Source of the DNA: Shigella phage SHFML-26
Sequence record: KX130862
Length of the DNA: 64,000 nt
Reading direction: 5' to 3' (one strand)
Shown: piece after piece, positions 9,094-9,848 of the stretch
How the letters are laid out: each line of letters starts with the position of its first letter
Numbering within the stretch: position 1 is the stretch's first letter
Notes under the pieces: generated by a model
What the model saw: only the letters and a program-made list of their open reading frames with translations
Told to the model about the DNA's origin: nothing
Database searches by the model: none
Program-made: the position numbers and the translations under genes

Positions 9094-9642
9094 ACCCAAG
9101 AAAACATCTACTGATCGTTGATACCACTGAAGGTCAAGGTATCCATTACGCACATTAAACTGATAGAACATATGACAAGGCGGTAATGCCATATATTTAA
9201 GTTCAGCTGGATTCCATGCTGAAACAATTTGACGCCTATCATTTGGCAGTTTTTTAATACGATCAATAACTTCTATAATTTGGTCTACACCGCCAAAATC
9301 GCGCCATTGTTTTCCATAAATTGGACCAAGTTCACCGCTATGGTATCCTAAATCTTTTGCTTGATTTTCGTAATTTTCATCCCAGACTGTTTTGCCTTGG
9401 ATTAACGAATCATGCTGAATTAATCGTAAATCATTGACATTTGTGCTTCCCGATAAAAACCATATTAGCTCAGCAATGCAAGCTTTCCAGGCGAGCTTCT
9501 TAGTTGTTACTGCAGGAAAACCTTTAGTTAAATCCCAGCGTAATTTAGTACCGAACAAAGCAATTGTTCCTGTGCCTGTTCGGTCATCGGTTTCGTAGCC
9601 ATTTTCCAGGATATCTTTAATTAAAAATTGGTATTGTTTCAT
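9094..9642 (-). CDS. td: thymidylate synthase, exon 1
   Basis: [31 protein letters not shown]... ends ...VDVFLG immediately before the intron. Confidence 0.9.
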
Positions 9643-9848
9643 TAGTTCATCCAAGAATATGTAGAAGGATATTTGGCAAAGTTAGGCTTATATCCTAATT
9701 TAACCATTTGTTTTGCTTTGCGAGTAAATCCTAAAGAACGCTCACCTTTAAGATATTGTTTTGGTGTCATAGGCCCTTGATGCATCTGCCGACAAATAAA
9801 AAGGGCCATAGCATTAGGAACATCCTTAACTTTTAATTTATTGCTCAT
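9642..9848 (-). CDS. small ORF (68 aa) between frd and td
   Basis: Track ORF; ATG overlaps the frd stop (ATGA) and its TAA overlaps the td ATG (TAATG), i.e. translationally coupled in the frd-td operon. Confidence 0.45.

Follow-up and report, generated by a model that had tools for sequence, protein, structure and literature searches.

In bacteriophage T4 the stop codon of frd overlaps the start codon of td in the sequence ATGA, and the two genes follow each other directly (NC_000866; frd at 145109-145690, td with its end at 145112, four nucleotides shared and no ORF at the junction). The window analyzed here, a stretch of 64,000 nt from Shigella phage SHFML-26 (KX130862), derives from a T4-like phage (Tequatrovirus) in which the genes of the frd-td region lie on the minus strand and in which a small ORF of 68 codons, designated ORF68, separates frd from td. 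This raises the question whether ORF68 is an expressed small gene inserted into a conserved operon, as the original prediction proposed, or whether it is the junction of T4 that departs from that of its relatives.

To define the locus, we compared the ORF list and the sequence of the window with the T4 genome. ORF68 (207 nt, corresponding to 68 aa plus the stop codon) is present and has exactly the predicted translation, and both overlaps that had been taken as signs of translational coupling were found in the window sequence (Table 1). The TGA of frd occupies positions 9847-9845 and the ATG of ORF68 positions 9848-9846, and a single base is common to the TAA of ORF68 (9644-9642) and the ATG of td (9642-9640). 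The latter start codon was confirmed by joining the two td exons, which results in a complete thymidylate synthase of 286 aa. The context of the ATGA overlap reads ...GTATATAAATGAGCAAT in the window and ...GTATATAAATGAAACAA in T4, where this same context forms the td start. The flanking genes are the same in both phages and the ATGA at the end of frd is likewise used as a start codon, but the ATG in it starts td in T4 and ORF68 in the window, where td follows 206 nt further on at TAATG. The window contains exactly 206 extra bases at this position, bracketed by the 5-nt direct repeat AATGA, and a deletion from AATGA to AATGA recreates the exact T4 junction. The Frd proteins of the window and T4 show six nonsynonymous differences, and the frd counterpart in the near-identical phage PM107 is annotated as dihydrofolate reductase. 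The overall gene order in the window is gene 32 (11870-12775), homologues of frd.3, frd.2 and frd.1, an extra 81-aa ORF, frd, ORF68 and td. As a side observation, the group I intron of td, in which I-TevI is located at 8225-8962, is also present in T4 and T6, and td is uninterrupted in phages R5505 and JS98. A scan of positions 7000-11000 at the Rfam gathering threshold found no family, the group I intron family included.

Table 1. Features of the frd-td region in the window. All features are on the minus strand.
Feature	Position	Strand	Basis or remark
ORF68 CDS, 68-aa basic protein (phrog_9550)	9642..9848, stop included	-	ORF list, PHROG match, tblastn
frd (dihydrofolate reductase) CDS	9845..10426	-	193 aa; TGA overlaps ORF68 start
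ATGA overlap, frd stop/ORF68 start	9845..9848	-	window sequence
TAATG overlap, ORF68 stop/td start	9640..9644	-	window sequence
td exon 1 (thymidylate synthase)	9094..9642	-	adjoins ORF68 downstream
td exon 2	7766-8077	-	joined translation with exon 1
td intron, 1016 nt, carries I-TevI	8078-9093	-	exon joining, ORF list
AATGA 5-nt direct repeat, left copy	9845-9849	-	brackets 206-nt extra segment
AATGA 5-nt direct repeat, right copy	9639..9643	-	brackets 206-nt extra segment
Recombination patch	~9580..9880	-	sliding identity profile versus JS98, 92-99% identical

Searches with the 68-aa product revealed a full-length match to phrog_9550, a family without an assigned function (HMM E-value 1.3e-45, 154.5 bits, residues 1-68 aligned to positions 1-68 of the 68-position profile). 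By tblastn, a match to ORF68 was found in 236 records of a phage collection, with identities from 100% down to 40%. In 133 of these records, which belong to Tequatrovirus and Dhakavirus, the identity is at least 90%, and many of the copies in these two genera are 97-100% identical. Another 31 records fall between 60 and 90%; these include T4-like phages of Klebsiella, Enterobacter and Serratia at 60-81%, such as Klebsiella phage Marfa (81%), Enterobacter phage CIP9 (68%) and Serratia phage 4S (60%). The remaining 72 records lie below 60%, the matches listed among them being 40-43% identical and mostly from phAPEC8-like myoviruses, which form an unrelated group. When 1.84 billion representative proteins were scanned with an HMM, ten plausible homologues were obtained, all 70-96 aa long and all sharing the N-terminal motif M-[SK]-x-x-K-x-K-[VI]-x-x-x-P; a repetitive protein of 1402 aa (P0025) from the same scan was discarded as spurious. 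No paralogue of ORF68 was found elsewhere within the window. The dN/dS ratios obtained by the Nei-Gojobori method are 0.155 for the window versus Marfa and 0.187 for the window versus CIP9, and in the window-Marfa pair dN amounts to 0.14 for ORF68 and 0.48 for Frd. Relatives thus carry the gene at ratios well below 1, and judged by these comparisons ORF68 is a genuine conserved phage gene under purifying selection.

That the original prediction did not recognize the protein is fair, as it is uncharacterized, though it is present in GenBank as a hypothetical protein and in PHROGs. Proteins identical to the ORF68 product have been deposited under that name, and the gene is annotated in this way in more than 200 phage genomes. 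The family phrog_9550 includes PM107_146 (QZI83855.1), g232c of Yersinia phage fPS-65, gp177 of Marfa (YP_009850431.1) and gp235 of phAPEC8 (YP_007348396.1). The gene in the window does not differ from these deposited family members and represents another copy, and their functions are uncharacterized throughout. A literature search for the frd-td junction, the ORF68 peptide, the PHROG identifier and RB32ORF229c, an annotated ORF described below, found no mention of them. Based on family membership, the identical deposited proteins and the absence of a paper from this search, ORF68 is already known as an entity and uncharacterized in function. Two observations on deposited records may be added here. 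In Shinka (MZ502379), PYPS2T (NC_054944) and vB_EcoM_P8 (PV390659), the label "DUF4858" or "flagellar biosynthesis protein" is given to a feature that falls under the frd-td match but corresponds to neither gene. These labels look like annotation artefacts, because ORF68 has no Pfam match at E-values up to 10. In Shigella phage sb4 (PQ666542.1), which carries an allele of 92.6% identity, the two fragments into which td is broken have no intron-sized gap between them, and ORF68 is shortened to 162 nt. These breaks probably represent frameshift errors in the assembly; we considered sb4 as a possible transfer intermediate and left it out since the record looks error-bearing.

We also examined the position of ORF68 in the phages that carry it. 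In every T4-like phage examined, representing at least five lineages (Marfavirus, Kanagawavirus, Serratia phage 4S, Klebsiella phages and Dhakavirus), ORF68 directly precedes td, and the two genes overlap or abut. At their junction the window, PM107, JS98, Marfa and 4S share the TAATG overlap, and CIP9 has GTGA. On the other side, the start of ORF68 overlaps frd in the window and JS98 and another small ORF in CIP9 and 4S, and in Marfa the upstream stop codon lies a few bases before the ORF68 start. The distant homologues in phAPEC8-like and metagenomic phages are located among small hypothetical genes and never adjoin td; these clusters are found near genes for a PIF1-type helicase, DnaB and RNA ligase, and one of them has a Tad2-like anti-defence gene at a distance of about 4.3 kb. 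Within positions 9000-11000 of the window, promoter-like sites were not above shuffled controls, with none at or within ORF68, and no terminator-like sites were found. The RNA folds of the two ORF68 junctions are no more stable than shuffled sequences (z-scores of -0.15 and +0.44). A hairpin that would hide the ribosome-binding region of td through GGAUG/AUCC pairing was considered and rejected, given the z-score of -0.15; the consensus folding energy of this hairpin over five phages is -1.1 kcal/mol, and no compensatory changes were detected. ORF68 thus has the hallmarks of a coupled gene, in that its start overlaps the upstream stop, its stop overlaps the downstream start and neither a promoter nor a terminator was found in between, and this coupling architecture is conserved across genera.

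A probe for the T4 junction allowed us to distinguish three classes of phages according to the span between frd and td. Group 1 has the contiguous junction of T4, group 2 has about 206 nt extra, corresponding to ORF68, and group 3 has about 416 nt extra. The latter segment contains a 115-aa ORF, annotated RB32ORF229c in RB51 and KMB99_gp163 in T6, which many phages carry, among them T2, T6, RB5 and wV7. Counted at identities of at least 90%, this T2/T6/RB32-type allele is the commonest in Tequatrovirus with about 363 records, and the ORF68 allele has about 133 records, a count that includes Dhakavirus. The bare T4 junction is the rarest allele. It was found in about 25-33 records, most of which are isolates of T4 or near-clones such as RB55, RB59, G28 and F1. 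Like ORF68, the 115-aa ORF is an uncharacterized small ORF between frd and td, but it encodes an unrelated protein and is not coupled to its neighbours, being separated from frd by a gap of 20 nt and from td by a gap of 44 nt. The insert that contains it lies between two copies of the 8-nt direct repeat AAATGAAA, whereas the ORF68 insert is flanked by AATGA, and collapse of the AAATGAAA repeat in the T6-type allele (phage T6, locus L007, 1699-2122) again recreates the junction of T4 exactly. TATAAT-like and TATAAATA-like motifs are found in the 44-nt spacer between this ORF and td, which suggests that td may have a promoter of its own in the T6-type allele. In CIP9 (locus L004, 1826-2707) both kinds of occupant are found in series, the order being frd, a 111-aa ORF, a 119-aa paralogue, ORF68 and td. 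The 111-aa ORF is a homologue of the T6-type ORF (45% identity) and the 119-aa paralogue is more distant; they have a C-terminal GRFxKRGxExYF motif in common. This paralogue together with ORF68 is also present in Marfa and 4S.

Taken together, these comparisons suggest that the frd-td interval ancestrally held small ORFs. Since ORF68 is located upstream of td in several lineages, three alleles exist, both kinds of ORF occur in series in CIP9 and the inserts are flanked by direct repeats, the ATGA junction of T4 is more likely a derived deletion, reflecting a loss in T4 rather than a gain elsewhere. The idea that frd-td junctions across T4-like phages share a conserved state consequently holds only in part: the coupling on the td side is kept across genera, but the ATGA of T4 is not the conserved state. 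Furthermore, because the T4 junction is the exception within its group of relatives, an analysis that takes T4 as its reference will mistake common alleles for insertions. A separate observation concerns two records named as evolved T4 derivatives, LR597657 (T4_ev240) and LR597660 (T4_ev151), which nonetheless carry the T6-type 115-aa ORF; this would fit a recombinant origin at the junction.

Although the interval as a whole seems to be an old site of small ORFs, the copy of ORF68 in the window appears to have arrived recently. Compared with Dhakavirus JS98, the DNA of the window is 98.5% identical in ORF68, and only 76% identical in frd and 78% in td exon 1. A sliding identity profile placed this similarity in a sharply bounded patch (Table 1) consisting of ORF68, the last ~30 nt of frd and the first ~55-60 nt of td; outside the patch, frd and td are 59-86% identical to JS98. 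The first ~55 nt of td encode QFLIKDIL in the window and JS98 and QDLIKDIF in T4, T6 and R5505, so two amino-acid changes at the Td N-terminus travel with the ORF68 cassette. Over codons 1-14 of td (window 9600-9642) the window is the same as JS98, and T4, T6 and R5505 have MKQYQDLIKDIFENG. The JS98-like patch and the JS98-like td 5' end indicate a recent cross-genus exchange of the ORF68 cassette, together with a short stretch of td, with a Dhakavirus-like phage, and in the lineage of the window ORF68 looks imported by recombination. The proposed insertion into a conserved operon is therefore defensible locally, but at the scale of the family it is less likely than a loss in T4. Co-conversion by I-TevI was rejected as the transfer vehicle, because the td of JS98 lacks an intron and falls to 78% identity past the patch, the divergence beginning after the first ~60 nt. 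For T4-type phages, mobile promoter-stem-loop cassettes have been described (PMC2839356), in which early-promoter stem-loop repeats flank a gene and mediate its shuffling. No promoter-like sequence and no terminator-like hairpin flanks ORF68, the flanks of which consist of frd and td coding sequence.

The ORF68 product is very basic, with a pI of about 10.3 and a net charge of +11, and this is a property of the family: all 22 members examined have a pI of 9.75-10.56 and a net charge of +7 to +16. A conserved lysine-rich N-terminal arm is followed, in an AlphaFold2 model, by a small three-helix bundle. With a deeper alignment the model reached a pLDDT of 80.4 and a pTM of 0.54, with helices at residues 13-24, 29-39 and 43-50 and lower confidence for the N-terminal arm; a model from a shallow alignment had a pLDDT of 57.6, and its Foldseek search of the PDB was uninformative. 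Searches of Pfam, NCBIfam and PDB sequences with the single protein and with the 22-member alignment gave nothing credible. The fold search with the ORF68 model found no match in the PDB, and in BFVD it returned only the family itself. A helix-turn-helix or homeodomain-like fold was considered, and neither a superposition of the three-helix core nor a profile match to such a domain was obtained; the one property pointing towards DNA binding is the high pI conserved in the family. Likewise, no nuclease motif or domain was recognizable by profile, and the comparison of ORF68 with the I-TevI of the window by hhalign gave a match probability of just 0.2%. The searches of these general libraries (Pfam, NCBIfam, PDB sequences and PDB/BFVD folds) also gave no hit to a characterized anti-defence inhibitor.

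The explanation that we favour, with moderate confidence, is that ORF68 is an accessory gene which belongs to the orphan family phrog_9550 and represents one of the three alternatives at a polymorphic spot, and which would be co-expressed with frd and td, would have a binding role, would be dispensable and would be spread by recombination. Most likely, ORF68 is expressed from the same prereplicative (early or middle) transcripts as frd and td, given that no promoter- or terminator-like site was found between these genes and that their starts and stops overlap; in T4, early and middle promoters are located upstream of td (PMC2988022). Ribosomes may pass from frd to ORF68 and on to td by termination and reinitiation. 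The charge and the small helical model suggest, more tentatively, that the protein might bind nucleic acid or an acidic protein partner, and we regard this functional part as possible rather than probable. T4, T2 and T6 manage without ORF68 at frd-td, and the protein would accordingly act as a dispensable modifier of infection that is not needed for thymidylate synthesis. The cassette is likely to move from phage to phage through homologous recombination, with the conserved frd and td sequences on either side as the sites of exchange.

Among the alternatives, we consider it unlikely, yet worth bearing in mind, that ORF68 is an anti-defence or host-takeover factor that is kept or lost depending on the hosts met. 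Such a role would be in line with the patchy distribution and the three alternative alleles at one spot, with the recent cross-genus transfer of the cassette, with a gene that T4, T2 and T6 can dispense with, and with the location of distant homologues in small early-type hypothetical clusters, one of them near the Tad2-like gene. However, no similarity of the protein to characterized anti-defence proteins was found in the general libraries searched, the locus is not mentioned in the published accessory-gene screens that we checked, and so deeply conserved a position beside td is unusual among freely moving counter-defence genes. It should be noted here that this role overlaps with that of the recombination-borne accessory gene favoured above and does not exclude it.

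The strict adjacency to td in T4-like phages could also mean a functional tie to Td. ORF68 would in that case be a small subunit or regulator of thymidylate synthase or of the dNTP-synthesizing complex, for instance a chaperone, assembly factor or modulator, made in a fixed proportion to Td through the coupling. This possibility is favoured by the invariable place of the gene directly upstream of td, with overlapping start and stop codons, in at least five lineages of T4-like phages with highly diverged Frd proteins (dN ~0.48). On the other hand, T4, T2 and T6 make active Td without ORF68, the phAPEC8-like and metagenomic homologues sit away from td near PIF1, DnaB and RNA-ligase genes, and the adjacency could be explained by the generally well-conserved gene order of T4-like phages alone. 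Altogether we judge a dedicated Td partner to be improbable. More doubtful still is the bolder proposal that ORF68 represents a new kind of small basic regulator, that its placement and coupling at td are functional, and that its near-identical spread reflects recent positive selection and not neutral mosaicism; such a regulator might tune thymidylate synthase or the dNTP complex, or might shield it from defence systems that target nucleotide pools.

Two further readings are close to excluded. A translated spacer, which would merely pass ribosomes from frd to td by way of a functionless peptide, would account for the stop/start overlaps on both sides and for the use by ORF68 of the ATGA context that serves td in T4, but it is at odds with the dN/dS of 0.16-0.19, a protein better conserved than Frd, homologues at 40-45% identity in unrelated phages without td as a neighbour, a confident compact predicted fold, and the fact that T4 couples frd and td without any spacer. 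A remnant or passenger of a selfish element, for example a homing-endonuclease gene in decay or a cassette of the promoter-stem-loop type, is brought to mind by the lateral movement of a sharply bounded high-identity patch and by the frequency of homing endonuclease genes in the vicinity, namely I-TevI within the td intron and, in T4, SegG next to gene 32, but is contradicted by the lack of a nuclease motif, of a Pfam match and of profile similarity to I-TevI, by the intronless td of JS98, which is diverged past the first ~60 nt, by the lack of flanking promoter- or terminator-like elements, and by a sole flanking repeat, AATGA, the 5 nt of which are for the most part prescribed by the start and stop codons.

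As it stands, ORF68 adds one more to the uncharacterized small accessory ORFs known from T4-like phages, has already been deposited and catalogued, and matters little in itself. It belongs to a familiar class of small variable ORFs amid the nucleotide-metabolism genes of these phages. Like ORF68, the genes frd.1 (DUF5417), frd.2 (FRD2), frd.3 (Phage_FRD3), nrdA.1 and nrdA.2 are short, tightly packed, variably present and uncharacterized, but unlike ORF68 they have Pfam families and are present in T4. A function for the very basic 68-aa protein would be new, and nothing here predicts a surprise. The junction itself is a clean and small recombination spot with three alleles and a sharply bounded cross-genus patch of about 300 bp, which makes it a convenient case in which to study the exchange, among T-even phages, of accessory genes located between conserved enzyme genes. 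A similar small ORF is found on the other side of frd. The extra 81-aa ORF of the window is acidic and is located at 10426-10671 on the minus strand between the frd.1 homologue and frd, its TAA overlapping the ATG of frd in TAATG; it has no match in Pfam or NCBIfam. In T4 just a gap of about 71 nt is found at this site, so that T4 is without small ORFs on either side of frd, and the 81-aa ORF is present in PM107 and T6.
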